Shown here in pieces: positions 765 to 56,682 of a stretch of 64,000 bases of DNA. The notes below the pieces were generated by a model. It was not told the origin of the DNA. It ran no database searches and saw only the letters and a list, made by a program, of their open reading frames with translations. The first letter of the stretch is position 1. Every line of letters starts with the position of its first letter. The stretch is from positions 838 through 64,837 of the forward strand of contig JAQTPW010000004.1 in the NCBI GenBank assembly GCA_028712565.1, written 5' to 3'. A program made the translations under genes and the position numbers. Source of the stretch: Minisyncoccota bacterium. GTDB lineage: Bacteria; Patescibacteriota; Minisyncoccia; Minisyncoccales; JAQTPW01.

Positions 765-802
765 ATTTAAGTTGCCGGAAGTGATAAATTATATATGAAA
801 TT

Positions 803-2050: not shown

Positions 2051-2053
2051 AGC

Positions 2054-2757: not shown

Positions 2758-2776
2758 TCTCGATCCAGTAGAACTG

Positions 2777-2812
2777 GAAACCAAAACCCGCCGAGAGGCG
2801 GGTTTTGGTTTC
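2777..2812. terminator. bidirectional rho-independent terminator
   Basis: 16-bp stem GAAACCAAAACCCGCC / GGCGGGTTTTGGTTTC with loop GAGA, between convergent genes. It overlaps the ispH stop codon. Confidence 0.8.
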
Positions 2813-12092: not shown

Positions 12093-12108
12093 TTATTAAA
12101 AATTTTAG

Positions 12109-35103: not shown

Positions 35104-36924
35104 ATGTGCGGAATAGTAGGCTACATAGGCAAGGATCAAAATATAAAAATGGGTTTGGATGCTTTAAGAAGGCTCGAATACCGAGGCTATGATTCGGCTG
35201 GCGCCGCTTGGTATAATCAAAATCAAAAAGAAATATTCTGCCTTAAAAAAACTGGCAGAATAGATAATTTAGAAAAGGCAATTTCAGAGAGCAATTTAAA
35301 TCTTACAGGAAATCCTTTTATTTTTCATACTCGCTGGGCAACTCATGGCGGAGTGACAGACCAAAATGCTCACCCGCATTTTGATTGCAAAAAAGATATC
35401 TATTTAGCTCATAACGGAATTATCGAAAACTATCAGGAATTGAAAGAAAAATTGATAAAAGAAGGCCATCAATTCGTTTCTCAGTGCGATACAGAAGTGG
35501 TTCCCCATTTGATAGAAAAATATTTCCAAGGGAATTTAGAAGAAGCGGTTAGAAAAGCCTTAAAAGAAATTAGAGGAACTTATGGAATAGCAGTGATTTC
35601 AAAAAAAGATCCGGGAAAAATTGTGGCTGCAAGATTATCTTCTCCACTGCTTTTGGGAATTAATCAAAACCAAGTTTTAGTAGCTTCTGATCCTGCTGCA
35701 GTTATTACTCATACAAGGCAGATTATAAATTTAGACGACAACGAAATTGCAGTTTTGAAGCCGGAAAACTTTTTCATTTTAAAAGAAAAGCCAATAGTCC
35801 AAATTGAATGGACGCAGGAAGAAGCCCAAAAAGGAGGATATAAACATTTTATGCAAAAAGAAATAATGGAAGCGCCAGAAACTATTAAAAATGCCATTCG
35901 CGGAAGGCTGCTTCCGAATGAAGGGCAGGTGAGATTGGGAGGGTTAAATACAGTTTCAAATAAGTTAAGAGAAATTGACCGGATTTCTTTAATCGCTTGC
36001 GGGACGGCAAGCTATGCCGCTCGGGTTGGCGAATATATGTTAGAAGAATACGCGGGAATTCCTTCTGAATTTGATGTGGCTTCCGAATTCCGTTATAGAA
36101 AGCCGGTAGTTGATAAAAAAACCGCTGCGATTTTTATTTCTCAGTCAGGCGAAACAGCCGACACTCTTGGAGCTTTAAGGGAAATGAAGCAAAAGGGGAT
36201 TCTAACTATTGGCATTACAAATGAAGTAGGTTCTACCCAGTCCAGAGAAACCGATGCCGGCATTTATACAAGATCCGGCCCGGAAATTGCTGTTGCCTCT
36301 ACAAAAGCCCTAATCGGACAATTGGTAACTTTGGCAATGTTAACCGTGTATTTGGGCAGGCAAAGAGATATGGCTTTGGTAATGGGAAACAGGATTGTTA
36401 CAGAATTGGAAAAATTGCCAGAATTGGCAAATGAGGTTTTAAAACAAGGACCAGAAATTGAAAAATTAGTTGAGAAATACAAAGATTATAATAATTTCTG
36501 GTTTATCGGCAGAAAATATAATTATCCGATTGCCTTGGAAGGCGCTTTAAAATTGAAAGAAATTTCTTATTTGCATGCCGAAGGAATAGCAGCTGGTGAA
36601 TTAAAGCATGGGCCTTTGGCTTTAGTTGACGAAAATTTCCCAACAGTAGCCCTTTGCCCTTCGGATTCGGTTTACGAAAAAATGGTTTCGCATGTCCAGC
36701 AAATTAAGGCAAGAAACGGTAAGGTAATTGCTATTGCCACTCAAGGAAACGAAGATATTAAAAAAATAGCAGATGATGTAATTTATATTCCAAAAACTTT
36801 GGAAATGCTAACCCCGATTTTATCAGTCATTCCTTTGCAATTTTTTGCCTATTATATGGCAATATTGCGTGGTTGCGACGTGGACAAGCCAAGAAATCTG
36901 GCAAAGTCAGTTACTGTAGAATAA
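35104..36924 (+). CDS. glmS: glutamine--fructose-6-phosphate aminotransferase
   Basis: MCGIVGYIG N-terminal nucleophile, two SIS domains, C-terminal KSVTVE. The ATG at 35104 lies 2 nt after the leuS stop. Confidence 0.9.
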   Translation: MCGIVGYIGKDQNIKMGLDALRRLEYRGYDSAGAAWYNQNQKEIFCLKKTGRIDNLEKAISESNLNLTGNPFIFHTRWATHGGVTDQNAHPHFDCKKDIYLAHNGIIENYQELKEKLIKEGHQFVSQCDTEVVPHLIEKYFQGNLEEAVRKALKEIRGTYGIAVISKKDPGKIVAARLSSPLLLGINQNQVLVASDPAAVITHTRQIINLDDNEIAVLKPENFFILKEKPIVQIEWTQEEAQKGGYKHFMQKEIMEAPETIKNAIRGRLLPNEGQVRLGGLNTVSNKLREIDRISLIACGTASYAARVGEYMLEEYAGIPSEFDVASEFRYRKPVVDKKTAAIFISQSGETADTLGALREMKQKGILTIGITNEVGSTQSRETDAGIYTRSGPEIAVASTKALIGQLVTLAMLTVYLGRQRDMALVMGNRIVTELEKLPELANEVLKQGPEIEKLVEKYKDYNNFWFIGRKYNYPIALEGALKLKEISYLHAEGIAAGELKHGPLALVDENFPTVALCPSDSVYEKMVSHVQQIKARNGKVIAIATQGNEDIKKIADDVIYIPKTLEMLTPILSVIPLQFFAYYMAILRGCDVDKPRNLAKSVTVE

Positions 36925-37014: not shown

Positions 37015-38664
37015 ATGGAGGAGATTTTTTCGAAAAATTCAGGGAAGGCAATTTTATTGGGAAACGAAGCTATTGTTCGAGGCGCCTTGGAATCGGGCGT
37101 CAATTTTGTTTCTACTTACCCTGGAACCCCGGCTTCGGAAATCGGGAATATTTTTTATAAAATTTCAAAAGAAGCTGGCGTTTATTTTGAATTTTCTACA
37201 AACGAAAAGGTGGCTTTGGAAGCTTCAATTGGAGCCAGCTTTTCGGGTTTAAAAACACTGGTAGCTATGAAAAATTTTGGTTTGAATGTTTGCCTGGACG
37301 CTTTGTTTCCGTTTGTTTATACGGGCTCTAAAGGCCCTACGGTAATCATTGTTGCCGATGATCCTTCCTGCCACAGTTCTGCCCAGTCAGAAGAAAACAG
37401 CCGGGGAATTTTGCTCGCAACTCATATTCCGGTTTTAGAGCCGTCAGATCCTCAGGAATGCAAGGATTTTGTAAAATTAGGATACCAGATTTCAGAAAGA
37501 TTCAAAACTCCCGTGGTAATAAGAACTACGACAAGAGTGGCTCATCAGAAAGCGCCAGTAAAACTGAATGAAATCCCAAATAACAAATCCCAAATTACAA
37601 AAGGTGAGTTTGTGAGAAATAAGCATCAGTTTGTTACTTTGCCGCCTAGAGTTTTTGAAATGAAGGCAGAATTATTGGAAAAAATCGAGAGAATAAAGGA
37701 ATTTTCTGAAAAATCGATTATTAATAAAATTTCAGGCAATGGAAAAATTGGAATCATAACCTCAGGAGTTTCTTATTTAAATGTAATGGATGCGCAGGAA
37801 GAACTTGGGGTTAATCTCTCGGTTTTTAAACTCGGATTTTTTAATCCCTTGCCCGAAGAAAAAATTAAAGCGTTTTTAAGGCCTTTAAAAAAAGTTTTAG
37901 TTGTTGAAGAGTTAGAGCCATTTTTAGAGGACGAAATTAAAAGATTGGCAAAAGAAGTAAACTGCAAGCTGGAAATTTTCGGAAAAGGATTAATCCCAGA
38001 AATTGGCGAAACAAAACCAGAAGATGTGATCTTTGCTCTGGCAAAAGTGCTAAATCCTAAATCCCAAATCCCAAATCCTAAACAAATTCAAAATACAAAA
38101 ACCAAAATACAAACTACGGGACGCCTTCCCCAGCTCTGTCCCGGTTGCCCTTACTGGATGGTAATTTCTGCAATCAAAAAGGCCGTTAACGAAAACGAGG
38201 TGATATTTGGCGGGGAAATCGGATGCTATATGCTTTTTGGAAACGCACCGGTAAATTTGCAAGATTATTTATTTTGCATGGGGTCTTCAATGGGAATTGC
38301 CCACGGAATTAAAAAAGCTACCAAAGGCCAACAAAAGCTTATTACTTTTATCGGCGATTCTTCATTTTTCCATTCGGGAATTCCGCCTTTGATAAACACA
38401 GTTTTTAATAAATCGAATCCTTTAGTTATTATTTTAAATAATGAAACAACAGCCATGACCGGGCACCAGCCGCATCCAGTTTCTGCTGGAATGGAAAACA
38501 ATATAAACATTGAAAATATTGTCAGGGCTTGCGGAGTAAAATATGTAAAAACGATTGACCAGGCAAATCAGGAAGAATTTACCAATACGGTAAAAGATTT
38601 TTTGGAAAAAGATACGGTTTCTGTAATAATTGCAAAACATCCGTGCAAATTCGTTAAGAAGTAA
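37015..38664 (+). CDS. iorA: indolepyruvate:ferredoxin oxidoreductase alpha subunit-like (no C-terminal ferredoxin domain seen)
   Basis: LLGNEAIVRGALESGVNFVSTYPGTPASEI, CPGCPY, GDSSFFHSG TPP-binding motif. Confidence 0.75.
   Translation: MEEIFSKNSGKAILLGNEAIVRGALESGVNFVSTYPGTPASEIGNIFYKISKEAGVYFEFSTNEKVALEASIGASFSGLKTLVAMKNFGLNVCLDALFPFVYTGSKGPTVIIVADDPSCHSSAQSEENSRGILLATHIPVLEPSDPQECKDFVKLGYQISERFKTPVVIRTTTRVAHQKAPVKLNEIPNNKSQITKGEFVRNKHQFVTLPPRVFEMKAELLEKIERIKEFSEKSIINKISGNGKIGIITSGVSYLNVMDAQEELGVNLSVFKLGFFNPLPEEKIKAFLRPLKKVLVVEELEPFLEDEIKRLAKEVNCKLEIFGKGLIPEIGETKPEDVIFALAKVLNPKSQIPNPKQIQNTKTKIQTTGRLPQLCPGCPYWMVISAIKKAVNENEVIFGGEIGCYMLFGNAPVNLQDYLFCMGSSMGIAHGIKKATKGQQKLITFIGDSSFFHSGIPPLINTVFNKSNPLVIILNNETTAMTGHQPHPVSAGMENNINIENIVRACGVKYVKTIDQANQEEFTNTVKDFLEKDTVSVIIAKHPCKFVKK
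38049..38113 (+). repeat. AT-rich AAATCC(C/T)-type module in-frame in iorA
   Basis: GCTAAATCCTAAATCCCAAATCCCAAATCCTAAACAAATTCAAAATAC... encodes NPKSQIPNPKQIQNTKTKIQ. The 18-mer at 38059-38076 is identical to the reverse complement of 63768-63785 in mfd. Confidence 0.85.
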
Positions 38665-38722: not shown

Positions 38723-39298
38723 ATGGAACAAAAAAAATTCGATATGTTAATCGTCGGAACTGGAGGCCAGGGTTTGATTACCCTTTTGCAAATAATTTCA
38801 GAAGCAGCAACTTCTGAAGGTTATGATATAAAAACTTCCGAACTTCATGGATTATCTCAAAGAGGAGGTTCAGTAGAAGTCCACATTAGATTTGGAAAGA
38901 AAATTTACTCCCCCATGGTGGCGCAAGGAAAAGCTGATTTGATTTTGGCTTTGGAAGAGCAGGAATCTTTAAATGGGGCTTATTTTGCCAATCCCAAAAC
39001 GCAATTTTTAATAAACCAATTTGTAATTCCCATTCCTTTGAAAACATCTTTTACAGAGAAAGAAATTTTAAAACAATTGGGAAAAATAACCAAAAATATT
39101 ACTTTAGTCCCGGCAGATAAAATCTGCCAAGAAAAGCTCGGAACCACTGTTGTTTCCGGAATTTATTTAGTTAGCTTTGCGGCTTTTCATAATTTGATTC
39201 CTCTGAAACCAGAATCAATAAAAGCTGCAATTAAAAAAATAATTCCACCAAATTATATGGAGTTAAATATAAAAACTTTCGAATTAGCAAAAAGCTAG
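38723..39298 (+). CDS. iorB: indolepyruvate:ferredoxin oxidoreductase beta subunit-like
   Basis: FDMLIVGTGGQGLITL...ELHGLSQRGGSV. The ATG at 38723 is preferred over the ORF-track start, which runs through a repeat-rich spacer. Confidence 0.75.
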   Translation: MEQKKFDMLIVGTGGQGLITLLQIISEAATSEGYDIKTSELHGLSQRGGSVEVHIRFGKKIYSPMVAQGKADLILALEEQESLNGAYFANPKTQFLINQFVIPIPLKTSFTEKEILKQLGKITKNITLVPADKICQEKLGTTVVSGIYLVSFAAFHNLIPLKPESIKAAIKKIIPPNYMELNIKTFELAKS

Positions 39299-39320
39299 CT
39301 TATTTTAAGGAGGTAAGCGA

Positions 39321-39491
39321 TGGAAGAAAATAAAAAAGGTGACTACGCAAATGTCGTTCTTCCGATACTAGACGAAATCAAGGAAGCCGGTCTGGTCGGC
39401 GAGCAAAACGGATATCGGTTTACCGAAGATCCGTGGCATAGAAGAGTTAAGCGCTGGGTCCTCCGCACCTTCAGCCATCTATTTAAATAGG
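39321..39491 (+). CDS. hypothetical 56-aa protein (below the ORF-track cutoff)
   Basis: AAGGAGG SD at 39308-39314 and ATG at 39321. Translates as MEENKKGDYANVVLPILDEIKEAGLVGEQNGYRFTEDPWHRRVKRWVLRTFSHLFK*. The stop lies inside a terminator hairpin, and the ORF is GC-richer than its neighbours. Confidence 0.45.
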
Positions 39492-39507
39492 TGGCTTTTA
39501 TTTTTTC
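39474..39507 (+). terminator. rho-independent terminator
   Basis: Stem AGCCATCTA 39474-39482 / TAGGTGGCT 39489-39497 (one G:U pair), followed by TTTTATTTTTT. Confidence 0.65.
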
Positions 39508-39510
39508 TAT

Positions 39511-39539
39511 TGACAAAAAAATATGCTGTCATTAGAATA
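39511..39539 (+). promoter_or_regulatory. sigma70-type promoter
   Basis: TTGACA 39511-39516, 17-nt spacer, TAGAAT 39534-39539. Confidence 0.5.
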
Positions 39540-39609
39540 CTAGTAAAACAATAAAAAAATAAAATTAATAGGAAATTTAATAAAAATTAATAAAATTAAT
39601 CTACTAATT

Positions 39610-40251
39610 ATGAAAAAAGCACATATATTCTTAGCAATTATTGTTGTGATGATCGGAATTTTAGGAATAAGTTCTAATGTTTTTGCCGATCAGCAGATTT
39701 TGACTTCTATGATAATTCAGCCTGGACCGGTAACTCTAAGTGTTGGAGAAAAAGGAGCATATACAGTCTACCCTTTAGACCAAAACGGGAATCCTTTCTT
39801 GGAGCGATTTACTGTAACTTGGGAGAGCTTAATACCAACAGTTGCTACTATAAACAATTCGGGGTTAATTAAAGGTATTTCTTCTGGTATTGCTACAATG
39901 ATTGTGACAGTTACTAGCGGAAATTTTACGCCAATATATGGAGTAGTCCCTGTATATGTGACATCTCCGGAAGATCCTATTCCGACTACGTTTAAAATTT
40001 CTCCTTCTCAGGTTTCAATTAAAATAGGAAAAACTCAAATGCTCAAAATTTCAGTTTTAGATCAAGATGGAGATCGTTTTACGGGAAACCTTTTAAAGAT
40101 GTTTGTTTCCTATGATAGGCAAATCGCAATAGCTGATGGCCAAGGTATTATAACCGGAATCTCTGCGGGTAATACCGGAATTTTTGTTGTGGTAACTGAC
40201 GGAATTCATCCTTTGCTTTCCGCAACTGTGGATGTTATTGTAAGGCAGTAA
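39610..40251 (+). CDS. secreted protein with two bacterial Ig-like (Big_2-type) domains
   Basis: Signal peptide MKKAHIFLAIIVVMIGILGISSNVFA. Two repeats containing ATINNSGLIKGISSGIATMIV / AIADGQGIITGISAGNTGIFV. Confidence 0.65.
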   Translation: MKKAHIFLAIIVVMIGILGISSNVFADQQILTSMIIQPGPVTLSVGEKGAYTVYPLDQNGNPFLERFTVTWESLIPTVATINNSGLIKGISSGIATMIVTVTSGNFTPIYGVVPVYVTSPEDPIPTTFKISPSQVSIKIGKTQMLKISVLDQDGDRFTGNLLKMFVSYDRQIAIADGQGIITGISAGNTGIFVVVTDGIHPLLSATVDVIVRQ

Positions 40252-40265
40252 TCTTTGAGAGATCA

Positions 40266-40305
40266 CAAAAAGCCGCCCGTTCGATGTGACTCAGGGCGGT
40301 TTTTT
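40266..40305 (+). terminator. rho-independent terminator built from a TTCGAT...CTCAGGGC family element
   Basis: AAAAAGCCGCCC ... GGGCGGTTTTTT. The loop carries GTTCGATGTGACTCA, whose inverted copy TGAGTCGCATCGAAC lies at 40311-40325. Confidence 0.6.
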
Positions 40306-40375
40306 ACAATGAGTCGCATCGAACTTTCCGAAGGGAAAATAGGATGGAGCGAAAATTAAATACTTAATTTTTGTC

Positions 40376-40403
40376 TTTGACTTTTATAAAAAGAATTGTA
40401 AGA
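40376..40403 (+). promoter_or_regulatory. candidate promoter
   Basis: TTGACT 40376-40381, 16-nt spacer, TAAGAT 40398-40403, upstream of the strong SD AGAGGAGGTGAGG. Confidence 0.35.
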
Positions 40404-40454
40404 TATAGCATACTTTAAAAACTGAATAATTTCAAAAAAGAGGAGGTGAGGTAA

Positions 40455-41831
40455 ATGACTATAAATTCTGGTTCAATTTTTCCAGGAGAAAAGGTCCCAT
40501 TTAGTTACGGATTCCATCCGAAATTCGAGCATTCTTATAGAAGGTTTTATAGGGAGATGATAAGAAAAGCCAGAAAAGGAGTGTTCTACGAGAAAAAGGT
40601 ATCTCTGACTGATATTCGAAAGAGCGGGAACGTATATCTTGTCCCTCGGGATAGATATATGGAGGTTGTTGATGAATTTGGAGATATAGTTGCCGTCGGC
40701 AATCTTGATAAGGCAATGTTTCCATTCAGCTCCTATGATTTTTATGCAGATATCCTTGAAGAAAAATATTTCCAAGAACTTCTTTCTCAGGCATTCTATC
40801 GGTTAGGAGAAATCAGCCAGCTTGGTTATTTGGTCCCGCCAAGACCCGAAGATTGGGATCCCAACATATCTATCTCATATTATGTTCCTGCTTTTCCGCA
40901 TACGCGTTGGGCACATTCCAGATTAGTTGCTTTTTTAATGGAGGCCGTTTTGGCCAGCCATGGTTTTATGGAAAAAGAGCGGCTTCCGATAATTTTGACG
41001 GCTGCTTATCATGATATAGCAATCCCTGCCGGAGGTGATTCGATAAAGCGCGTTAATATGGAAGAGCTGGATGAAGAAAATAACTTCGAATGGGTGTTGA
41101 ATCATTATGGGTTGGTCGAAGAATGGTCTAAAGAGTACGGGTTTGATATACAAGTAGCCAAACAATGGGTAAAAAACCAGGGGTTATTCGGAAGACTATT
41201 AGACGTCATCGATAAGATGGCATATACAGCCCTTGATTGCTACTACGTCGGCGTCGACCGTCCGTGTAATGTCAGAACTTTCGGGTTAAAAAATCCTTTG
41301 ATTATGGATGTTTGGCAGGACATAAAGATTAAAGAAGACCGGAGCGATTTGGCCTTCACAAATCCCGACAGGCTTTTCAATTTCTTGCTCTTCAGGGCAT
41401 ACGAGCATACAGATCTTTTAATGAATCCTTATTCCCGAGCCCTGGACTTTTTTCTAACGAAGTTAGTCCAGCCCCTCTATGAAAAAGGTATAGTCACGCG
41501 AGAACAGCTTCTCACCCAGGACGATATGTGGCTAAAGGATGTGTTGCGGGTTTCTTATCCGAAAAGAAATGCCTCGATCATTATTGAACCAGAGCTTATA
41601 AGTTGGAAGAAGTTTGACGATCGGGAGCAGTTTGAAAAATTCTGCTCCGAAAATAAAGAAGCAGATCATACAGAATACATTAAAGGGTTTAACTTGGGTT
41701 TGGACTTTAAAGTATACGATGGGAATAAAATAACATCGGCCAGAGAAGTCTTTTCAAAAAACCAAATTGAAGAGTTGGAGGAGGCGAATAGGAAAGTAAA
41801 AGGATATTACATATATTATGCAAAGGAGTAG
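40455..41831 (+). CDS. divergent SAMHD1/dGTPase-like HD-domain phosphohydrolase
   Basis: FYRLGEISQLGYL...PHTRWAHSRLVAFLM (H..H), TAAYHDIAIPAGGD (HD), VIDKMAYTALDCYYVG. This is collinear with the FQRL..QLG / HxRxxHS / HD / DxxDYxxRD motifs of dNTP triphosphohydrolases. Confidence 0.55.
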   Translation: MTINSGSIFPGEKVPFSYGFHPKFEHSYRRFYREMIRKARKGVFYEKKVSLTDIRKSGNVYLVPRDRYMEVVDEFGDIVAVGNLDKAMFPFSSYDFYADILEEKYFQELLSQAFYRLGEISQLGYLVPPRPEDWDPNISISYYVPAFPHTRWAHSRLVAFLMEAVLASHGFMEKERLPIILTAAYHDIAIPAGGDSIKRVNMEELDEENNFEWVLNHYGLVEEWSKEYGFDIQVAKQWVKNQGLFGRLLDVIDKMAYTALDCYYVGVDRPCNVRTFGLKNPLIMDVWQDIKIKEDRSDLAFTNPDRLFNFLLFRAYEHTDLLMNPYSRALDFFLTKLVQPLYEKGIVTREQLLTQDDMWLKDVLRVSYPKRNASIIIEPELISWKKFDDREQFEKFCSENKEADHTEYIKGFNLGLDFKVYDGNKITSAREVFSKNQIEELEEANRKVKGYYIYYAKE

Positions 41832-41832
41832 G

Positions 41833-41865
41833 GCCCGTTTGAACTAAAAGACGGGCTTTTTCTTT
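41833..41865 (+). terminator. rho-independent terminator
   Basis: GCCCGT...ACGGGC stem followed by TTTTTCTTTT, immediately after the stop. Confidence 0.7.
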
Positions 41866-41946
41866 TAACCATGAAGTTAAAAATGTTCTAGGGTCGTCCG
41901 CCCCTCAGAAATGAGATTTCGCAACCTCGCATAGGGTGTGACTTTT

Positions 41947-41955
41947 TGGTAGGAT
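41947..41955 (+). promoter_or_regulatory. extended -10-like TGGTAGGAT; implies a leaderless or near-leaderless mRNA
   Basis: The element ends 6 nt before the ATG at 41962, and no SD is present. Confidence 0.3.
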
Positions 41956-41961
41956 ATATAA

Positions 41962-42699
41962 ATGGTAGAAGGCGCTATAAAAAATCACAAATTGGCGGCG
42001 GAGAGGCTGGATTTGGTTAAGGATAGAGCTTTTAGTTTTATAAAGAATAATCTTGGGAAAGTTTCAGAATACGACGTAAACAAATTTATTTTTTCGGAGT
42101 TTAAAAAATCTGGGTTCACTCCTGACAGAAATTATCCAGCTGTGATTGTTGCGGTAAACGAAAATGCCCAAAATCCTCATTATTTTCCGAACAAAAAAGG
42201 ATCTAAGATTATAAAAAAGAATGATTTAATTTTATTGGATATTTGGGCAAATCTTAAGGGAGAAGATTCTCATTTTGCCGACATTACTTGGATGGCTTAT
42301 GCGGGAAGAGAAATCCCCGGTGAAATTAAAGCAACTTTTGAAAGGGTTATTGGAGCTAGGGATTTTACGGTAAAATTCATCAAAAAAATATTAGGAAGGA
42401 AACAATTGCCAAATACGCAGATAGTGGATAGGGCGGTAAGAAAGTATTTTGGGAAAATGGGAAAATATTTTATTCACGGCACCGGACACAGTTTGGGCAT
42501 TAAAGAATGCCACGGTAAATATTTCCGCTTTGACAAGAGAAGTAATGCCAAAATGAAAATTGGAATTCCGTTTACAATTGAGCCGGGCCTTTATTTTCCC
42601 GGCAAATTTGGTATAAGAAGTGAAATAAACTGCTATATTACTAAAAATTATAAATTAGAAATAACCACAAAAGTTCAAAAACAAATAATAAAAATTTAG
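41962..42699 (+). CDS. M24-family metallopeptidase catalytic domain (Xaa-Pro peptidase/creatinase fold)
   Basis: LLDIWA...ADITWMAY, HGTGHSLG, FTIEPGLYF metal-ligand blocks. The N-terminal domain is missing (245 aa). Confidence 0.7.
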   Translation: MVEGAIKNHKLAAERLDLVKDRAFSFIKNNLGKVSEYDVNKFIFSEFKKSGFTPDRNYPAVIVAVNENAQNPHYFPNKKGSKIIKKNDLILLDIWANLKGEDSHFADITWMAYAGREIPGEIKATFERVIGARDFTVKFIKKILGRKQLPNTQIVDRAVRKYFGKMGKYFIHGTGHSLGIKECHGKYFRFDKRSNAKMKIGIPFTIEPGLYFPGKFGIRSEINCYITKNYKLEITTKVQKQIIKI

Positions 42700-42735
42700 C
42701 ACTTCGGTGCGTTCAGTATTTTCGGCCCGAAATTT

Positions 42736-43059
42736 ATGAAAGAATTAACGTTAAGAGAAATTCAAAAAAGGATTTGGGATAACAAAGTAAAAAAAGGTTT
42801 TAATACTACTGATGTCAGTAAAGAATTTTTATATTTGGCCGAGGAATTGGGCGAGGCGGTCAAGGCATATCGCAAAAACAGCAAAGACGAACTGGCTGAA
42901 GAAATCGTTGATTTGATAATTTATTCATTGGGGCTGCTTGAGATGACAAAAAAAGACGGATATGAAGAGATAATGAAGAAGATTGAAAAGAATGAAAAAA
43001 GAGAATATCACGGCAAAAAAGGCGGCTTCAGACAGTTGAGAGACGACCAAAAATCTTAA
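42736..43059 (+). CDS. MazG-like nucleotide pyrophosphohydrolase (all-alpha NTP-PPase)
   Basis: LTLREIQKRIWDNKVKKGF...FLYLAEELGEAVKAYRK...LAEEIVDLIIYSLGLLEM (EExxE/D motifs). Confidence 0.7.
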   Translation: MKELTLREIQKRIWDNKVKKGFNTTDVSKEFLYLAEELGEAVKAYRKNSKDELAEEIVDLIIYSLGLLEMTKKDGYEEIMKKIEKNEKREYHGKKGGFRQLRDDQKS

Positions 43060-43102
43060 ATAAAAAAATTACCATCAAAACGATTTTTTGGGCAGATGAG
43101 AT

Positions 43103-43507
43103 ATGAATAAAAAACTTCAAGAAATAATCGAAAACAGCAGTTTTACGATAGAGGAAGGAAAATTTATATATGCGAAAGTAAAAAGAGCACCTCATATGGA
43201 TTGTCATTTTACGGTTGCTAAGGATTCAGATGAGATAACCGTTATTACCAAAAAAGAGAATTTAAACAAATTAGATTTGATTGAAAAAAATAAAGATTTT
43301 TACAGACTAATTGCGCTTAATGTTTCGGTGCCGTTTTATTCCGTAGGGTTTTTATCTGCAGTCAGCGACGCTGTTGCCAAAGAAGGGATGAATATCTTGA
43401 TAGTTTCTACCTACTCCAAAGATTATATTATGGTAAAAGATGACTGCTTAGAGAAAGTTCGACTCGTATTACTATCCTTGGGCTTTAAACGCAAAAAAGA
43501 AATTTAA
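43103..43507 (+). CDS. ACT-domain small-molecule-binding protein (ACT_7-like)
   Basis: C-terminal VGFLSAVSDAVAKEGMNILIVSTYSKDYIMVK is a typical ACT beta-alpha-beta ligand-binding pattern. Confidence 0.5.
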   Translation: MNKKLQEIIENSSFTIEEGKFIYAKVKRAPHMDCHFTVAKDSDEITVITKKENLNKLDLIEKNKDFYRLIALNVSVPFYSVGFLSAVSDAVAKEGMNILIVSTYSKDYIMVKDDCLEKVRLVLLSLGFKRKKEI

Positions 43508-43574
43508 ACTTTTATTAAACAGATTTGATGTCGTTCAGCAAGCGGAGTCATTAGTTTTAGCTATTAGGTTTAAA

Positions 43575-43600
43575 CAAGCCGTTCGGGCTTGATTTTCTTT
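43575..43600 (+). terminator. rho-independent terminator
   Basis: CAAGCC-GTTCG-GGCTTG followed by ATTTTCTTTT. Confidence 0.65.
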
Positions 43601-43646
43601 TGAGATCTACTAAAATTTGCAATTAAGGAAAGGAGTTCTTTAATAG

Positions 43647-43655
43647 TGATATAAT
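43647..43655 (+). promoter_or_regulatory. extended -10 element TGATATAAT
   Basis: Perfect TGnTATAAT 19 nt upstream of the ATG at 43674, with the SD GAAGGAGAAG in between. Confidence 0.45.
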
Positions 43656-43673
43656 AATCGAAGGAGAAGTAAT

Positions 43674-44183
43674 ATGAAATATATAGCTATCAGCGGAAGC
43701 TGGCGAAAAACAAGCGAGAAATTGGAAAAAGATGTAAGAGATGCCGTAAGAGAAATTATAACCAAAGGAGATGGCATTATTGCCGGAGGTGCTTTGAATG
43801 TAGATTTTATTGCCACCGATGAGGCATTAAAATTAGATCCGACCGCTAAGAAAATAAAAATTTTTCTACCGATCACATTAAGGATTTTTGCTAAACATTA
43901 TCGTAAACGTGCCAAAGAAGGCGTAATCACAGGAGAACAAGCAGAAGCCCTTGTTGCCCAATTAAAGAGAATTCAAGAAGTTAATCCATCTTCGTTGAAT
44001 GAAAACAAGAATAATACCGTAGTAAATACGGAAACATATTATGAGAGAAATTCGGATATTGTTAATGCGGCAGATGGATTAATGGCATTTCACGTTAATA
44101 AAACCTTAGGTACGCAAGATGCTATTGATAAAGCTCGTAAAAGAGGAATTCCGGTGAAGGTTTCCACTTATACTATCGGATAA
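43674..44183 (+). CDS. standalone DprA/SMF-like (SLOG-superfamily, DUF2493-like) Rossmann protein
   Basis: YIAISGSWRK...GDGIIAGGALNVDFIATDEAL...ADGLMAFHVNKTLGTQDAIDKARKRGIPV parallels the GSR / GGAxGxD / GT motifs of the DprA and LOG-like fold. Confidence 0.45.
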   Translation: MKYIAISGSWRKTSEKLEKDVRDAVREIITKGDGIIAGGALNVDFIATDEALKLDPTAKKIKIFLPITLRIFAKHYRKRAKEGVITGEQAEALVAQLKRIQEVNPSSLNENKNNTVVNTETYYERNSDIVNAADGLMAFHVNKTLGTQDAIDKARKRGIPVKVSTYTIG

Positions 44184-44195
44184 AAAACTAATCTT

Positions 44196-44221
44196 AAGCG
44201 GCTATAAATGCCGCTTTTTTA
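44196..44221 (+). terminator. rho-independent terminator
   Basis: AAGCGGC-TATAAAT-GCCGCTT followed by TTTTTATTT. Confidence 0.75.
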
Positions 44222-44280
44222 TTTCTTCTGATTTATATTTTGTTTTTTTATAATAAATTAATTAGCAAAACAACAAAAAA

Positions 44281-44352
44281 ATCGCCCTGAGTTTATCGTC
44301 CTTCAAATTCTTCAGGACGACCCTGCGGAATTCGAACGGGTCGAAGACGATT
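44281..44352 (-). repeat. GC-rich composite palindromic element downstream of murA (TTCGAC...CTCAGGGC family)
   Basis: The minus strand reads CGTCTTCGACCCGTTCGAATTCCGCAGGGTCGTCCTGAAGAATTTGAAGGACGATAAACTCAGGGCGAT. It shares CTTCGACCC-TTCGA and CTCAGGGC with the in-frame copy at 60801-60850. Confidence 0.75.
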
Positions 44353-44362
44353 TTTTGTTAGA

Positions 44363-45622
44363 TTATATTCTTTTTATTTGAGCTCCGAGATTTTTTAGTT
44401 TTTCTTCAATTTTTTCGTGGCCTCTTTCAATTTGAGAGATGTTTTCAATTGTAGTTTCGTCTTTTGCAACCAATCCCGCTAAAATTAGTGCGGCTCCTGA
44501 CCTGATATCGGAAGCGTTTATTTTGCCGCCAACCAATTCTGTCTTCCCAAAAATCAGGGCTCTGTGAGGGTCAACAACTTCAATATCAGCTCCTAATTTT
44601 CTTAATTCATGCAAATGCTGAAAACGGTTTTCATACAAAGGATCATGAATCAAACTTTTTCCTTTTGCCTGAGTCAGCAAAACAGAGGTTTGGGGCTGCA
44701 AATCGGTGGGGAAGCCGGGGTACGGCAAAACCTGAATTTTGGTTCCCGTAAATTCATCGGATTTTTTTACAAAAATTTCGTTGCCGGATATTTCAAAATT
44801 AACTCCGATATCTTTCATTTTTTCCAAGAAAAAGGTTAAATGCTCAGGATTTACATTTTTTATTTTTCCTTCGCCTCCGGTTATTGCAAAAGCTATAAAG
44901 AAAGTCCCTGCTTCCAATAAATCCGGGCAGATGGAAAATTCCGCGCCAGATAATTTTTCTTTGCCCGTAATTTCAATTGAATTAGTCCCCAAGCCCTCAA
45001 CTTCTGATCCCATTTTTCTTAAAAAATTTCCCAAATCCTGAACTTGGGGTTCGGCTGCAGCAATTTCGATTTTAGTTATGCCTTTTGCGCGGCTCGCCAG
45101 CATCATTATAATTTCAGTTGCAGTTACCGAAAATTCTTTTAAAACAACTCTTTTCCCTTCTAATTTTTCCGGAGCTTTGAAATGGTAAAAACCGTCTTTT
45201 TCTTCGGTTTTTATCCCGAAGCTTTCCAGCGCCTGCAAATGCGTAGCTATGGGTCGTAGCCCAATTTTATCTCCGCCGGGATGCGGAATTTTAAAATTTT
45301 TAAACCTGATAACCAGCGGCCCGATTAATAAAACCGAAACCCTCATTTTTTCAAAAAGATTTATCGGGATTTTTTCAGGATTAATGTTTTTTGGATTTAT
45401 TTTTACTTTCCTTTGACTCAACCACTCAACTTCCGCCCCCATTTGTTTTATGATTTCAATTTGGTCTAAAACATCGGTTACCTGCGGCAGATTGTCAATA
45501 ATAGAGGGTTCTTCGGAAAGCAAAACAGCCGAGATGATTGCACCGGCTGAATTTTTATAACCTGAAATTTCCACCTCTCCCGAGAGAGGAGCTCCGCCTT
45601 TTATAAGAAATTTGTTCGTCAT
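44363..45622 (-). CDS. murA: UDP-N-acetylglucosamine 1-carboxyvinyltransferase
   Basis: FLIKGGAPLSGEVEISGYKNSA, GGDKIGLRPI, and the C-terminal IERGHEKIEEKLKNLGA. Confidence 0.9.
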   Translation of the reverse strand: MTNKFLIKGGAPLSGEVEISGYKNSAGAIISAVLLSEEPSIIDNLPQVTDVLDQIEIIKQMGAEVEWLSQRKVKINPKNINPEKIPINLFEKMRVSVLLIGPLVIRFKNFKIPHPGGDKIGLRPIATHLQALESFGIKTEEKDGFYHFKAPEKLEGKRVVLKEFSVTATEIIMMLASRAKGITKIEIAAAEPQVQDLGNFLRKMGSEVEGLGTNSIEITGKEKLSGAEFSICPDLLEAGTFFIAFAITGGEGKIKNVNPEHLTFFLEKMKDIGVNFEISGNEIFVKKSDEFTGTKIQVLPYPGFPTDLQPQTSVLLTQAKGKSLIHDPLYENRFQHLHELRKLGADIEVVDPHRALIFGKTELVGGKINASDIRSGAALILAGLVAKDETTIENISQIERGHEKIEEKLKNLGAQIKRI

Positions 45623-45680
45623 CCCCAGTATATTTTTCTTTGACTTAACGCTATTTTTAATCTACGATAAAAAAGAAGAT

Positions 45681-46664
45681 ATGTCAAAAAAAAGAAAAAA
45701 AATCGTTTGTTTTGGCGGAGGCGGAGGCATGCCGAAATTGATATTGGAGCCGTTAAAAGATTTAGATTTGGATTTAGTTGCGATTACTTCAATGGTTGAC
45801 AATGGCGGATCCACCGGCGCCCTAAGAAAAGAATTTAATGTTTTGCCTGCCGGGGATATCAGAAGACATTTATTGGCCTTGTCCGAAGCTGAGGAATGGA
45901 AGAAAAAACTTTGGAATTTCCGATTTGCAAAGAATATTGAAATTTCTCCGGAGCATTTCGGACATAATTTTGCAAATGTCTTTATTTCTGGGCTTGAATA
46001 CCTTCTTGGTGATTTTGAAAAAGCGCTGGAAATTACTCATGAATTTTTGAAAGTGAAAGGAAAAGCAATGCCAGTTACATTAGATAAGGTCCAAATAATA
46101 GCGGAATTAGAAGATGGAAGTTTGGTAGAGGGGGAGGACGAAATCGATCTTGGCCAAAATCACAATCGAAATTTAAAAATAAAAAGAGCGTACCTAAATC
46201 CAGGCGGGAAAACTTATAAAAAGGCAATTGAGGAAATTGAGACGGCTGATTTTATTATTATTGGTCCCGGAGATCTTTATTCAAGTTTAATCGCCTGCTT
46301 TTTGACTGAGGGCATAAAAGAAGTAATGAAAAAAACGAGTGCTAAAAAAATATTTATTTGTCCCGCGATGAATAAACTTGGGGAAACGCAAGGATACTCG
46401 GTTAAAGATTTCGCCGAAAAAATCGAGGAATATATGGGAATTTCTTTAGATTTCGTAATTTTCAATAATAATATCTCTGCCGACGAAAGGATAGAGAAAT
46501 TTAAGGAAGAAATGAAAAAAGAATTCGTACTCGACCTTCCAAAAATTAATTATGGATTAGATGAAAATAAATTCATTGGTGCGGATTTGCTTTTAGATGA
46601 GGGGGAAATAAAATACGATAAAAATAAAATTTTTAAAGTTTTAAAAAGAATTGTTAATTTTTAA
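45681..46664 (+). CDS. YvcK/CofD-family protein (UPF0052, gluconeogenesis factor-like)
   Basis: IVCFGGGGGMPK, ITSMVDNGGSTGALR, LPAGDIRRHLLAL. The ATG at 45681 is preferred because the longer ORF overlaps murA. Confidence 0.75.
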   Translation: MSKKRKKIVCFGGGGGMPKLILEPLKDLDLDLVAITSMVDNGGSTGALRKEFNVLPAGDIRRHLLALSEAEEWKKKLWNFRFAKNIEISPEHFGHNFANVFISGLEYLLGDFEKALEITHEFLKVKGKAMPVTLDKVQIIAELEDGSLVEGEDEIDLGQNHNRNLKIKRAYLNPGGKTYKKAIEEIETADFIIIGPGDLYSSLIACFLTEGIKEVMKKTSAKKIFICPAMNKLGETQGYSVKDFAEKIEEYMGISLDFVIFNNNISADERIEKFKEEMKKEFVLDLPKINYGLDENKFIGADLLLDEGEIKYDKNKIFKVLKRIVNF

Positions 46665-46669
46665 ATATT

Positions 46670-47950
46670 ATGCAAACTCAAGCTATAATTTTGGCGGCCG
46701 GAGAATCTTCGAGATTCTGGCCATTAAACAAATCGCATAAATCCCAAATTAAAATTTTAGGGAAACCTTTGGTTTATTGGACAATAAAGAGTTTGTCTCA
46801 GAGAAATATTAGGGACATTATTATAATTGCCAGCCCAAATAATATTTCTGATTTGAAAACAGAATTAAAAACAGAGACAAAAGAGCTTGGAGTAAATATT
46901 TCTTTTGTTGTGCAAGAAAAACCGTTAGGCACTGGAGATGCAATTTTCAAGGCTCGGGGTTTAATTCGCGGCCCATTTTTCGTTTTTTGGCCCTACCAGA
47001 TTATAGCTGGAGAGATTGCTTTAAATATGTTGAGTTTGGCCGGGAAAGAAAAAAACAGTTATGTTTTCACCGGGGTCGAAACAAAAACACGGGACTACGG
47101 CATTCTTAAAATGGAGCATGATAAGCTTGTTGGGATAGTGGAAAAACCAAAAAATGGGCAGGAGTTTTCTCCTTTTCGTGTGGTCGGCAGTTATTTTTTG
47201 CAGCCGGATTTCTTTGAATATTTCCAGAAGGTAAAACACCATCCAGAAGATTTCGTAGATGCATTAAATCTTTCTATTAAAGATAAGACGCCGGGATTAA
47301 TTATTTTAAAAAAAGATGTGGCTACTTTAAAATTTCCTTGGGATATTTTGGGCCTGCAAAAAATCTTGTTAGATTCTGCGGAGATGAAAAATTATGTAGA
47401 TCTTTCTGCAAAAGTTAGGCAAAATGTCACAATGGGCGGCCTGGTTTCAATCGGAGAAAATACGATTGTCGGAGAAAATACTGTAATTTTGGGCCCTTGT
47501 CATATAGGTCCTAACTGTAAAATCGGAGCCAATAATGTCTTAAGGGGCCCTTTGGATATTGAAGGTGAGGTAGTAACGGGCGCTTTTTGCGAATTAAAAA
47601 ATTCTTTGATACAAAAAGGAACTCATTTTCATTCAGGTTATTTTGGAGATTCGGTTATTGGAGAGAATTGTCGATTTGGAGCAGGATTTATAACTGCAAA
47701 TAGGAGAATTGATAGAGGGAATATTAATTCTATAGTAAAAGGTAAAAAAATAGATACGGGATTAACTTATTTTGGAATGGTTTGCGGAAATAATACCCGT
47801 TTTGGAATACATTCGGGAACTATGCCCGGAATTTTAATTGGTTCAAATTGCGCAATAGGGCCCGGTTCTATTGTTTCTGAAAATATCGAAGACGGTATAA
47901 AATATTTCACCGAATTCAAAGCAACTAAGAAAAAAATTAATGCCGAATAA
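46670..47950 (+). CDS. sugar-phosphate nucleotidyltransferase with a C-terminal left-handed beta-helix (GlmU/GCD1-like)
   Basis: AIILAAGESSRFWPL and GTGDAI N-terminal motifs; hexapeptide repeats in the C-terminal half. Confidence 0.7.
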   Translation: MQTQAIILAAGESSRFWPLNKSHKSQIKILGKPLVYWTIKSLSQRNIRDIIIIASPNNISDLKTELKTETKELGVNISFVVQEKPLGTGDAIFKARGLIRGPFFVFWPYQIIAGEIALNMLSLAGKEKNSYVFTGVETKTRDYGILKMEHDKLVGIVEKPKNGQEFSPFRVVGSYFLQPDFFEYFQKVKHHPEDFVDALNLSIKDKTPGLIILKKDVATLKFPWDILGLQKILLDSAEMKNYVDLSAKVRQNVTMGGLVSIGENTIVGENTVILGPCHIGPNCKIGANNVLRGPLDIEGEVVTGAFCELKNSLIQKGTHFHSGYFGDSVIGENCRFGAGFITANRRIDRGNINSIVKGKKIDTGLTYFGMVCGNNTRFGIHSGTMPGILIGSNCAIGPGSIVSENIEDGIKYFTEFKATKKKINAE

Positions 47951-56503: not shown

Positions 56504-56599
56504 TTGTTCACCTCCAAAATAGCAATAGCATAAAATATCCAGCTTGTCAAATATAAATGCAAACAAAAAAGAAACCTTATAAGGTTTCTTTTTAAACGG

Positions 56600-56682
56600 T
56601 GGGCGGGGAGGGAGTCGAACCCTCATGAGATTGCTCTCATGGCATTTTGAGTGCCACGTGTCTGCCATTCCACCACTCGCCC
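56600..56682 (-). tRNA. tRNA-Leu (anticodon CAA)
   Basis: Cloverleaf by eye: acceptor GGGCGAG/CCCGCCC (one A:C mismatch), anticodon arm TGGCA-CTCAAAA-TGCCA, long variable arm TGAGA-GCAA-TCTCA, T-arm GAGGG-TTCGACT-CCCTC. Confidence 0.8.

Follow-up and report, generated by a model that had tools for sequence, protein, structure and literature searches.

Between iorAB and murA in a metagenome-assembled Paceibacteria (CPR) genome lies a 4.9-kb block of seven ORFs, and a preliminary description of the window (the whole 64,000-nucleotide stretch of DNA analysed) suggested that it might be a nucleotide-depletion or nucleotide-sensing module or, equally, a coincidental collection of salvage genes. 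Do these genes form one system? Table 1 lists the features of the block and its flanks. All seven of the ORFs originally described were found, at least six of them covered by the GenBank annotation (from PHF44_02355 onward), and their assignments as a protein with two Big_2 domains, a SAMHD1-like HD protein, an M24 core, a MazG, an ACT and a DprA/SLOG-like protein were borne out by Pfam and Foldseek. As set out below, the block is most probably a lineage-specific patchwork of real, independently conserved genes and not a single functional system.

Table 1. Features of the block between iorAB and murA, in window coordinates.
Feature	Position	Strand	Remarks
iorA	37015-38664	+	left flank; indolepyruvate ferredoxin oxidoreductase subunit; NCBIfam IOR_alpha E 7e-179
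iorB	~38735-39298	+	left flank; indolepyruvate ferredoxin oxidoreductase subunit; NCBIfam IOR beta E 7e-40
orf56, 56 aa	39320-39490	+	hypothetical PHF44_02355; strong SD AAGGAGG
orf56 intrinsic-terminator-like hairpin	39473-39496	+	overlaps orf56 stop codon; 10-bp stem, then T-run; fold -13 kcal/mol, z -4.85
sigma-70-like promoter match	39510-39538	+	TTGACA-17-TAGAAT; upstream of Big_2 gene; 11/12 consensus positions, best in region; pattern match only
secreted two-domain Big_2 (bacterial Ig-like) protein	39610-40251	+	Pfam Big_2 E 1.4e-13, two stretches; no SD
hairpin element 1	40272-40338	+	3' of Big_2; terminator stem GCCGCCC...GGGCGG then T6, nested with 15-bp hairpin GTTCGATGTGACTCA / TGAGTCGCATCGAAC
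promoter-like site	40377-40404	+	TTGACT-16-TAAGAT; upstream of HD gene; 9/12 consensus positions; pattern match only
HD-domain protein, 458 aa	40455-41831	+	SAMHD1 fold; strong SD
HD gene intrinsic terminator	41830-41859	+	11-bp stem, then T-run; fold -17.9 kcal/mol, z -3.28
single-domain M24 metallopeptidase	41962-42699	+	catalytic pita-bread core, Xaa-Pro peptidase type; Pfam M24 E 1.8e-30; no SD
MazG-like all-alpha NTP pyrophosphohydrolase, 107 aa	42736-43059	+	Pfam MazG 28.2 bits, cut-off 22
ACT_7 ligand-binding protein, 134 aa	43103-43507	+	VC0802/Atu0741 type; Pfam ACT_7 37.6 bits, cut-off 27, E 2e-9
weak terminator-like hairpin	43575-43591	+	3' of ACT gene; 6-bp stem, then T-run; fold z only -1.55
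promoter-like sites	43589-43645	+	upstream of SLOG gene; TTGATT-16-TAAAAT; TG-n-TATAAT extended -10 at ~43637-43645; pattern matches only
stand-alone SLOG-fold protein, 169 aa	43674-44183	+	DprA/YpsA-like Rossmannoid (Foldseek); strong SD
SLOG gene intrinsic terminator	44196-44216	+	7-bp stem, then T6; fold -11.6 kcal/mol, z -4.47
hairpin element 2	44276-44352	-	3' of murA; compound GC-rich hairpin ending in T-run
murA	44363-45622	-	right flank; NCBIfam murA E 1e-145

The AlphaFold2 (AF2) model of the HD protein (pLDDT 89.5) returned SAMHD1 for all 50 of its top 50 Foldseek matches (best E 7e-10, TM 0.53), the fold being shared over its full length (~460 aligned columns, TM ~0.5). The protein keeps the H...HD...D metal site of SAMHD1 and dGTPases (H154, H186-D187, D253) and has the SAMHD1-like motifs QLG..V.P, H.R..HS and D.DK..Y.A.DC..G; in the homologue alignment Q122-L123, R151, H154, H186-D187, D253, Y257 and D261 are invariant. 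It differs from SAMHD1 in a sequence identity of only 14-16% and in a beta-rich N-terminal segment of its own, and its Pfam HD score falls under the family cut-off, with a profile search against PDB sequences giving E 0.046. The homologues also carry an invariant HDIA[ITM]PAGGDS at the position of the SAMHD1 loop HDxGHxPFSH, and the second catalytic histidine pair would then presumably be missing. A total of 143 homologues was found; in this analysis the family appeared in no sequences other than those of CPR bacteria and metagenomes. Family membership predicts a SAMHD1-fold metal-dependent phosphohydrolase, most likely of (d)NTPs or related nucleotides.

The SLOG protein was modelled with AF2 at pLDDT 96.9 and matched Helicobacter pylori DprA (E 1.6e-7), YpsA (3e-6), ShosA (4e-5), the SLOG domain of ThsA (5e-4) and also LOG proteins in Foldseek, with TM 0.64-0.69 to H. 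pylori DprA and YpsA (PDB 2nx2) over the Rossmannoid SLOG fold. It keeps the GxD/E-type motif of the superfamily (as defined in PMC6459960) in the form GGAL[NG]VD, the aspartate of which, D44, is invariant in the homologue alignment. However, DprA's SAM and winged-helix domains are both lacking, and the protein scores 21 bits with the TIGR dprA model against a cut-off of 191; unlike ThsA it carries no SIR2 or transmembrane effector, unlike Shosta it has no phosphoribosyltransferase partner, and gpsB, the typical neighbour of ypsA in Firmicutes, was not seen among the listed families of genes adjoining SLOG. The protein is predicted from its family to bind or process a nucleotide derivative. 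Its 434 homologues are 168-170 aa long and share 57-74% identity, and the 352 homologues of the ACT protein are 131-134 aa long, share 60-81% identity and come from several CPR lineages, named Uhrbacteria, Buchananbacteria and Daviesbacteria. The conservation of both proteins (uniform length, 57-81% identity) looks like that of housekeeping genes.

The ACT protein resembles VC0802/Atu0741 in its length (~133 aa) and its ACT_7 score above the Pfam cut-off, and it aligns weakly with VC0802 from end to end, although similarity to solved structures is marginal (E ~0.02); the ACT_7 domain also occurs in the arginine sensor CASTOR1, and a regulatory role involving the binding of a small ligand is predicted. 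The M24 protein is closest to the Xaa-Pro dipeptidases and aminopeptidase P (M24B), matching PDB 5xev and other prolidases at their C-terminal domains (E 6e-23), but without their N-terminal domain of ~140 aa. Proteins consisting of the core alone make up a genuine short family (~245 aa; closest representatives mostly 237-256 aa), and Xaa-Pro-type peptidase activity is predicted. The NCBIfam methionine aminopeptidase model gave 26 bits (cut-off 171), and that assignment was rejected. The MazG protein is a single small domain of the SSO3215 type (PDB 1vmg, E 7.8e-5) with acidic EExxE and EExxD motifs (AEELGEA and AEEIVD) and a match to a PHROG pyrophosphatase (E 2.5e-10); it is far shorter than the two-domain Escherichia coli MazG and has no mazEF context. 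As a small NTP pyrophosphohydrolase it would probably clear unwanted nucleotides from the pool ('house-cleaning').

The translation of the Big_2 gene begins with an obvious signal-peptide-like stretch, MKKAHIFLAIIVVMIGILGISSNVFA, and the protein also matches PHROG Ig-domain structural proteins. orf56 is a singleton cluster with no Pfam, NCBIfam, PADLOC or PHROG match, nor did tblastn find a match in 1.13 Mb of related loci. An antisense ORF of 57 aa (39343-39516) overlaps it.

The survey of gene neighbourhoods covered 108 related loci (1.13 Mb in all), with homologues of HD, SLOG or ACT as anchors. None of the 20 distinct HD loci (flanks up to +/-10 kb) contained homologues of M24, MazG, ACT, SLOG, Big_2, orf56, iorAB or murA, and each neighbour family recurred in at most 4 of them; downstream of the closest HD orthologue found (77% identity) lie CSD, PDZ and ATP-cone genes. 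In 80 metagenome loci with a SLOG homologue (43 with a length of 6 kb or more) there were no homologues of HD, M24, ACT or murA, and the closest orthologue found (73% identity) has unannotated ORFs on both sides. The ACT gene was found in seven contexts, each with a different pair of immediate neighbours, and in all six of the others neither MazG nor M24 adjoins it; the closest orthologues found (80-81% identity) lie between CTP_transf_like and Peptidase_S51 or, on a short contig, downstream of a RibD_C gene. Pooling all 108 loci at E <= 0.1 left the outcome unchanged, although a MazG or ACT homologue that had diverged very far might escape tblastn with one short query (107-134 aa). Within ~10 kb of the anchors (20 distinct HD loci, 81 SLOG loci and 6 distinct ACT contexts), the sole other block member seen was one MazG-like ORF, at a distance of 4 kb from SLOG. 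Since each of the seven genes has different neighbours in related bacteria, they look like a chance grouping. The preliminary description had named as contrary evidence a block that is syntenic and universal in relatives together with families that do not co-occur; synteny of the block is not kept in the relatives surveyed and the first part does not hold as worded, whereas the lack of co-occurrence, which is what counts, was indeed found.

A rival proposal is a lineage-specific anti-phage module, in which HD and MazG would destroy (d)NTPs under the control of ACT and SLOG as ligand sensors. The domains do fit the themes of defence systems, given the SAMHD1 fold of the HD protein and the matches of the SLOG fold to ShosA and ThsA, and the block is loosely packed. 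In GC3 the HD gene ranks first among the window's 60 ORFs of 100 aa or more (0.423, z 2.7; overall GC 0.407, z 1.75), which is compatible with acquisition from outside; the block had been described as GC-richer in places, which holds for this gene only, the remainder being typical of the window. However, PADLOC, with its models of known defence systems, matched nothing in six of the seven proteins, HD, MazG and ACT included, and its weak partial hits for SLOG, to PsyrA (2e-4) and ShosA (0.01), cover only a shared Rossmann motif of ~55 residues. The block contains no partner toxin (no ShosT-like phosphoribosyltransferase, PsyrT, SIR2 or TIR). In other genomes HD genes have housekeeping and not defence genes as neighbours (methyltransferases made up 2 of 97 ORFs), and the uniformity of ACT and SLOG is unlike the turnover of defence genes. 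IMG/VR viral contigs held no relatives of HD and only fragments of 35-50 residues for SLOG. With the components failing to co-occur, save for the one MazG-like ORF, we regard an anti-phage module as highly improbable; the nucleotide-depletion or -sensing reading finds no support, and the evidence favours the coincidental collection.

The organisation of the block was also examined. It is more loosely packed than its surroundings, as had been noted: its gaps of 93, 203, 130, 36, 43, 166 and 179 nt have a median of 130 nt, whereas the window's 52 other gaps have one of 7 nt (Mann-Whitney p 0.0012). The view that it is cut into small units, each with its own promoter, strong SD and terminator, stands only in part. 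It can be seen from Table 1 that terminators delimit about five units rather than seven (orf56; Big_2; HD; M24-MazG-ACT; SLOG), and a strong SD precedes only orf56, HD and SLOG; that of ACT is weak and none lies upstream of Big_2, M24 or MazG. Neither promoter-like nor terminator-like sites were more numerous in the region than in shuffled sequence (31 versus 28.2 +/- 5.1 and 14 versus 9.7 +/- 3.3, respectively). orf56 is possibly transcribed with iorAB, as the tail of that transcript. The terminators and long gaps would mean separate transcription of the units, which would favour a patchwork.

Two repeat elements had also been reported, one within the block and one just beyond it. Both are real GC-rich hairpins (folds of -30 kcal/mol, z -3.16, and -31.5 kcal/mol, z -3.44), but they share little sequence: alignment gave ACTCAGGGCGRTTTTTT and CCCGTTCGA as common to both, and the shared sequence is limited to a 17-mer (with a single mismatch), a 9-mer and an A-run (blastn-short E ~1). 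Neither the window nor ~1.1 Mb of related loci yielded further copies. Element 1 probably terminates the Big_2 gene at its 3' end, and element 2 probably terminates murA.

Within this arrangement M24, MazG and ACT stand closest together. They are probably co-transcribed, with M24 as first gene, since their gaps are only 36 and 43 nt and a hairpin/T-run scan with folding revealed no terminator between them; a genuine terminator of the HD gene lies ahead of M24, and a single terminator-like hairpin follows ACT. A local functional link among the three is therefore conceivable, and they alone might form an operon of shared function, for example with ACT as a ligand-sensing regulator of MazG, the rest of the block being unrelated. 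Co-transcription in compact CPR genomes, however, often reflects packing rather than function. In the six other ACT contexts, including those of the 80% and 81% orthologues, MazG and M24 do not adjoin ACT, and the ACT-anchored loci contained no homologue of either at E <= 0.1. We consider a functional operon of these three genes unlikely.

The only recurrent link in the survey was between SLOG genes and NUDIX hydrolases. NUDIX was the commonest immediate neighbour of SLOG, accounting for 10 of 130 adjacent ORFs compared with 12 of 636 non-adjacent ones (odds ratio 4.3, Fisher p 0.0015), or with 14 of 946 when the ORFs of HD loci were included in the background (odds ratio 5.5, p 2e-4). Macro, Maf and LigT genes also adjoin SLOG in other genomes, and two of the six other ACT contexts have NUDIX-Maf-Ham1 or NUDIX/HD_3/Ham1 genes within a few kb (loci L106 and L103). 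For the YpsA clade of SLOG proteins a tie to NAD or ADP-ribose has been suggested (PMC6459960), and this too would fit a loosely organised yet genuine 'nucleotide house-cleaning neighbourhood' of CPR bacteria, in which SLOG pairs with a nearby pyrophosphatase, NUDIX in many genomes and MazG here. Yet the adjacency is confined to 10 of 77 SLOG loci, or ~7 independent cases once near-duplicate contigs are considered. The MazG gene of the window lies two genes from SLOG, with a terminator-like hairpin and promoter-like sites intervening, and just one other MazG-like ORF was seen near SLOG, 4 kb away. We give such a neighbourhood a modest chance.

The patchwork of independently conserved genes remains the preferred explanation. 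CPR bacteria rely on salvaged nucleotides, and as a consequence nucleotide enzymes are common in their genomes and often lie near each other. The adjacency seen here would be happenstance within a loosely packed, rearrangement-prone stretch, though genes for nucleotide hydrolases do turn up now and again close to the anchors in other genomes, and there may be a weak tendency for them to be neighbours.

The genes between iorAB and murA had been put forward either as a nucleotide-depletion or nucleotide-sensing module or as a coincidental collection of salvage genes. All seven reading frames described there were found, each on the forward strand, and the domain assignments made for them were upheld, those of the Big_2, M24, MazG and ACT_7 proteins by Pfam and those of the HD and SLOG folds by AlphaFold2 models searched with Foldseek. 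GenBank proteins of the source contig (MDD5145658-62, locus tags PHF44_02355 onward), which comes from a metagenome-assembled 'Candidatus Pacebacteria/Paceibacterota' genome of the Candidate Phyla Radiation (CPR), match the HD, ACT and SLOG proteins and, by exact-sequence look-up, four others. The Big_2 protein has two Big_2 stretches (Pfam E 1.4e-13) and a clear signal peptide, and its family membership predicts a secreted surface protein. The MazG protein (Pfam 28.2 bits, cut-off 22) has the acidic metal-binding motifs EELGE and EEIVD, and is likewise predicted to be an NTP pyrophosphohydrolase that clears unwanted nucleotides from the pool. The M24 protein (Pfam Peptidase_M24 E 1.8e-30, 106.7 bits, cut-off 23) aligns with the catalytic domains of prolidases but lacks their N-terminal domain. 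Since most of its nearest representatives are equally short (mostly 237-256 residues, around 245), a truncated pseudogene was rejected in favour of membership in a genuine family of short proteins; from this family an Xaa-Pro-type peptidase is predicted. The first frame, orf56, matched no family in Pfam, NCBIfam, PADLOC or PHROG and formed a singleton cluster. An antisense frame covers nearly all of it (see table), and of the two strands it is that of orf56 that has the strong Shine-Dalgarno (SD) sequence and the GenBank annotation.

We compared the neighbourhoods of the HD, SLOG and ACT families in related genomes. For HD, GTDB species genomes and two contig look-ups supplied 20 distinct loci, in which the flanks extended as far as 10 kb on either side. 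When all of the proteins of the block and its flanks were used as tblastn queries, none was found accompanying HD in these 20 loci, and all-against-all clustering of the neighbouring ORFs gave no family present in more than four of them. The three genes on either side of HD (97 ORFs, analysed using Pfam and PADLOC) were a mix of ordinary genes with only two methyltransferases, and no family occurred more than three times among them. A metagenome scan provided 80 SLOG loci, 43 of at least 6 kb, which contained no HD, M24, ACT or murA gene; the single exception to the lack of block members was one MazG-like ORF 4 kb away. The SLOG orthologue at 73% identity, on a 117-kb contig, has unannotated ORFs on both sides. 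Neither MazG nor M24 was present in six further ACT contexts, the neighbours of which are listed in the table. Across all 108 loci (1.13 Mb, E <= 0.1) co-occurrence of the block families came down to that one MazG-like ORF, although tblastn with queries of 107-134 residues may miss very divergent homologues. Nowhere in these loci were the same families adjacent in several lineages, and the closest relatives compared (long-contig identity up to about 80%) do not have the block.

These results provide no support for a nucleotide-centric module, for which PADLOC was also close to empty, and favour the coincidental collection, the families being unlinked in relatives. CPR genomes commonly contain genes for handling nucleotides, and the presence of several within 5 kb is therefore unsurprising. 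We conclude that the block is probably not a module but a patchwork specific to the lineage, made up of genes that are each conserved on their own and situated in a loosely packed CPR region.

The loose packing noted in the preliminary description is real. The intergenic gaps of the block are 93, 203, 130, 36, 43, 166 and 179 nt, with a median of 130 nt, whereas the remaining 52 gaps of the window have a median of 7 nt (Mann-Whitney p 0.0012). The further proposal of small units each with its own promoter, strong SD and terminator held in part. Convincing intrinsic terminators were found 3' of orf56, Big_2, HD and SLOG and a weak one 3' of ACT, and strong SD sequences only at orf56, HD and SLOG, with none at Big_2, M24 or MazG. 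Since no terminator was found between M24, MazG and ACT, the block appears to comprise around five transcription units rather than seven. The promoters are pattern matches only, and the totals of promoter-like and terminator-like sites in the region showed no excess over shuffled controls. M24, MazG and ACT are thus probably co-transcribed in the window, which could point to a local functional link between them; the ACT contexts in other genomes, however, point the other way, and we regard such a link as very unlikely.

Two hairpins lie in the 36-nt spacer between M24 and MazG, one a tetraloop hairpin, GCAC-UUCG-GUGC, and the other a short GC hairpin, TTTCGGCCCGAAA, which abuts the start codon of MazG, itself without an SD. 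These hairpins could be a candidate element for RNA processing, stability or translation control. Two larger structures that had been described as repeat elements are GC-rich hairpins with terminal T-runs (fold z about -3.2 and -3.4), located at the 3' end of Big_2 on the forward strand and the 3' end of murA on the reverse strand. The hairpins are real but their likeness is marginal: they have in common a 17-mer with one mismatch, a 9-mer and an A-run (blastn-short E around 1), and no further copies occur in the window or in about 1.1 Mb of related loci. As they are inverted around the HD to SLOG genes we considered whether they might be the ends of a mobile element. This was rejected because each occupies the expected terminator site of the preceding gene; the shared matches are short, and neither a transposase nor an integrase is encoded in the block. 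The hairpins are accordingly read as terminators. Searches of the window with Rfam and ARAGORN identified only a tmRNA and a tRNA-Leu gene, both distant from the block.

NCBIfam confirms the flanking genes as leuS, glmS, iorA and iorB, then the block, then murA on the reverse strand, a yvcK-like gene and a glmU-like gene. UDP-GlcNAc and peptidoglycan precursor genes lie on both sides (glmS to the left; murA, the UDP-GlcNAc-binding yvcK-like gene and the glmU-like gene to the right), and iorAB and the block occupy the middle of this neighbourhood.

Features of the window and of related loci. L022-L101 are SLOG-anchored loci, L102 carries the closest SLOG orthologue and L103-L109 are ACT-anchored; percentages are identities of the ACT orthologue.
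Feature	Sequence	Position	Strand	Detail
tmRNA gene	window	12106-12459	-	tag peptide ASPKLATVCA
glmS	window	35104-36924
Block	window	39321-44221	+	seven genes
orf56	window	39320-39490	+
Antisense ORF	window	39343-39516	-	57 aa; local GC 0.46
Hairpin element 1	window	40272-40338	+	3' of Big_2
HD gene	window	40455-41831	+
M24-MazG spacer	window	42701-42735		two hairpins
Hairpin element 2	window	44276-44352	-	3' of murA
murA, yvcK-like, glmU-like	window	44363-47950
tRNA-Leu(CAA) gene	window	56598-56682	-
NUDIX adjoining SLOG	L022	38-448
NUDIX adjoining SLOG	L063	5559-6050
NUDIX adjoining SLOG	L069	10504-10971
NUDIX adjoining SLOG	L082	1272-1733
Defence-like run	L102	1-4939		ATP-cone + Mrr_cat protein, nucleotidyltransferase, N6_N4 methyltransferase, DndB-like protein
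Defence-type run	L103 (same in L104)	26-3416		N6_N4 methyltransferase, MutH-like nuclease, SMODS + AGS_C protein (CBASS-type nucleotide cyclase)
secA-ACT region	L105	7165-10399
secA-ACT region	L106	6740-10399
ACT context	L103/L104			80%; CTP_transf_like and Peptidase_S51 adjoin
ACT context	L107			81%; RibD_C upstream
ACT context	L105			66%; SecA upstream, unannotated ORF downstream
ACT context	L106			66%; acetyltransferase upstream, SecA one gene beyond
ACT context	L108			64%; unannotated ORFs
ACT context	L109			65%; methyltransferase and 3-dmu-9_3-mt

At 18.9 bits the HD protein falls short of the Pfam HD cut-off of 22, phmmer found no relative for it among PDB sequences, and a profile search of these gave E values of 0.046-0.9. 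A match to kanamycin nucleotidyltransferase (E 0.9) in the sequence-only PDB search was dismissed as noise. Recognition of the relationship to SAMHD1 required structure prediction. When the AlphaFold2 model (pLDDT 89.5, pTM 0.90, from an alignment of 19 homologues) was compared with the PDB using Foldseek, the best 50 matches were all SAMHD1 (best E 7e-10, around 460 aligned columns, TM about 0.5), with the fold in the model spanning the whole catalytic core. The HD-superfamily metal-binding residues H154, H186-D187 and D253 are invariant in the 19 homologues, as are Q122-L123, R151, Y257 and D261, and a weak profile alignment places the invariant residues on the SAMHD1 motifs H.R..HS, HD and D.DK..Y.A.DC..G. 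However, the loop following the HD dyad reads HDIA[ITM]PAGGDS in all 19, whereas in SAMHD1 it is HDxGHxPFSH, with H210 and H215 as the second histidine pair; this pair would be absent from the PAGGDS loop. The likeness is one of fold and metal-binding residues, with no significant match to the SAMHD1/dGTPase family at the sequence level. The label 'divergent SAMHD1-like' is therefore fair, but it does not describe a regular member of the family. Family membership predicts a metal-dependent phosphohydrolase of this fold, with (d)NTPs or related nucleotides as its substrates.

All 143 HD homologues are from CPR or metagenomes, and they are full-length down to 40% identity. The block had been described as GC-richer in places (window GC about 0.35), which proved true of the HD gene alone: its GC3 of 0.423 is the highest among the 60 window ORFs of at least 100 residues (z 2.7), and no other gene of the block stands out. 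The HD gene also departs further from typical codon usage than do other genes of comparable length. Taken with the variety of its neighbours elsewhere, this suggests that the HD gene moves between genomes or positions.

The 169-residue protein is, as judged from its AlphaFold2 model (pLDDT 96.9), a stand-alone SLOG-fold protein. Foldseek matched it to the Rossmann domain of DprA, YpsA, ShosA, the SLOG domain of ThsA and LOG-type proteins, and its GxD/E-type motif is [NG]-V-D44 with the Asp invariant. It reaches the cut-off for DprA proper in neither TIGR00732 (21 bits against 191) nor Pfam DNA_processg_A (23.2 against 29.6), and at this length, with no extra domains, it does not have the full DprA architecture. 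Its 434 homologues are of 168-170 residues at 57-74% identity, and the family is predicted to bind or process a nucleotide derivative. The ACT protein (Pfam ACT_7 37.6 bits, cut-off 27) has 352 homologues of 131-134 residues at 60-81% identity, whose names span Uhrbacteria, Buchananbacteria and Daviesbacteria; family membership predicts a small-ligand sensor. ACT_7 lies just downstream of secA in two different CPR lineages (L105 and L106), where murB and hpf precede secA in that order. An acetyltransferase gene separates ACT from secA in L106, and a NUDIX-Maf-Ham1 run follows there 2-4 kb further on. Around ACT in L103 are HD_4, NUDIX, HD_3 and Ham1 genes.

In L022-L101 no gene is found directly beside SLOG more often than that of a NUDIX hydrolase, a weak general tendency: 10 of 130 adjacent ORFs are NUDIX, compared with 12 of the 636 that are not adjacent (Fisher p 0.0015), counts in which several loci are near-duplicates. 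They make up 2 of 310 ORFs in the HD loci, and p falls to 2e-4 with a background that combines these with the non-adjacent ORFs. An iterated HMM was used for detection because a Nudix-box regular expression was too strict, finding four of the 10 neighbours detected by Pfam. Macro (3), Maf (2) and LigT (2) genes also adjoin SLOG, and this adjacency suggests an ADP-ribose-like or other nucleotide-diphosphate compound as the substrate of the SLOG family. A suggested link of YpsA-clade SLOG proteins to NAD or ADP-ribose has been mentioned (PMC6459960). NUDIX, Maf, Ham1 and HD_3 genes also occur near ACT in two contexts. On these grounds MazG could play here the part that NUDIX plays beside SLOG elsewhere, although we consider this unlikely. 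A broader proposal, that SLOG and a nucleotide pyrophosphatase (NUDIX in about one-eighth of loci, MazG here) form a loose CPR pair processing an ADP-ribose-like or nucleotide-derived metabolite and that, separately, the CPR-specific HD family, with PAGGDS in place of the second histidine pair, hydrolyses (d)NTPs by a modified catalytic mechanism, is unlikely to hold as a whole.

HD, MazG and SLOG-type proteins recur in phage defence, and the block could on this basis be a defence module. PADLOC gave no match for six of the seven proteins, with none for HD at E <= 0.1 against the defence-family HMMs, and only partial, weak ones for SLOG (PsyrA, 2e-4, over residues 3-57; ShosA, 0.01), which reflect a shared Rossmann motif. 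Thoeris ThsA, Shosta ShosA and PsyrTA PsyrA require a full-length match and a partner, and the SLOG protein has neither: no SIR2 or transmembrane protein with TIR ThsB, ShosT phosphoribosyltransferase or PsyrT was found in the block. An N6_N4 methyltransferase occurs within 10 kb of HD in four of the 20 loci, but methyltransferases make up only two of the 97 nearest ORFs, the others being housekeeping genes, and a defence-island setting for HD in these loci was rejected. A phage origin was also rejected, as no HD relatives were found in IMG/VR viral contigs and the SLOG-like matches there were fragments of 35-50 residues; the PHROG matches of MazG, M24 and Big_2 are to generic domains. We therefore regard a defence role for the block as extremely improbable. 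Two related loci carry defence genes of their own. The run in L103 and L104 precedes the ACT orthologue by about 7-10 kb and has the look of a real defence cluster, unrelated to the block. In L102 a defence-like run precedes the closest SLOG orthologue by about 5-10 kb.

As a cluster the block matters little. It illustrates that a suggestive list of nucleotide domains can arise in a CPR genome without conserved linkage, and that defence-island-style inference, when it uses nothing but domain content, makes too many calls in genomes of this kind. Its individual families are of modest value: an HD family, here confined to CPR and metagenomes, that Pfam does not cover and that combines a SAMHD1 fold with an altered catalytic loop; a highly conserved stand-alone SLOG family of 169 residues that tends to adjoin NUDIX hydrolases; and an ACT_7 family of about 132 residues that is highly conserved across several CPR lineages. 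These three families, none of them tied to this locus, are reasonable targets for the biochemistry of CPR nucleotide salvage.
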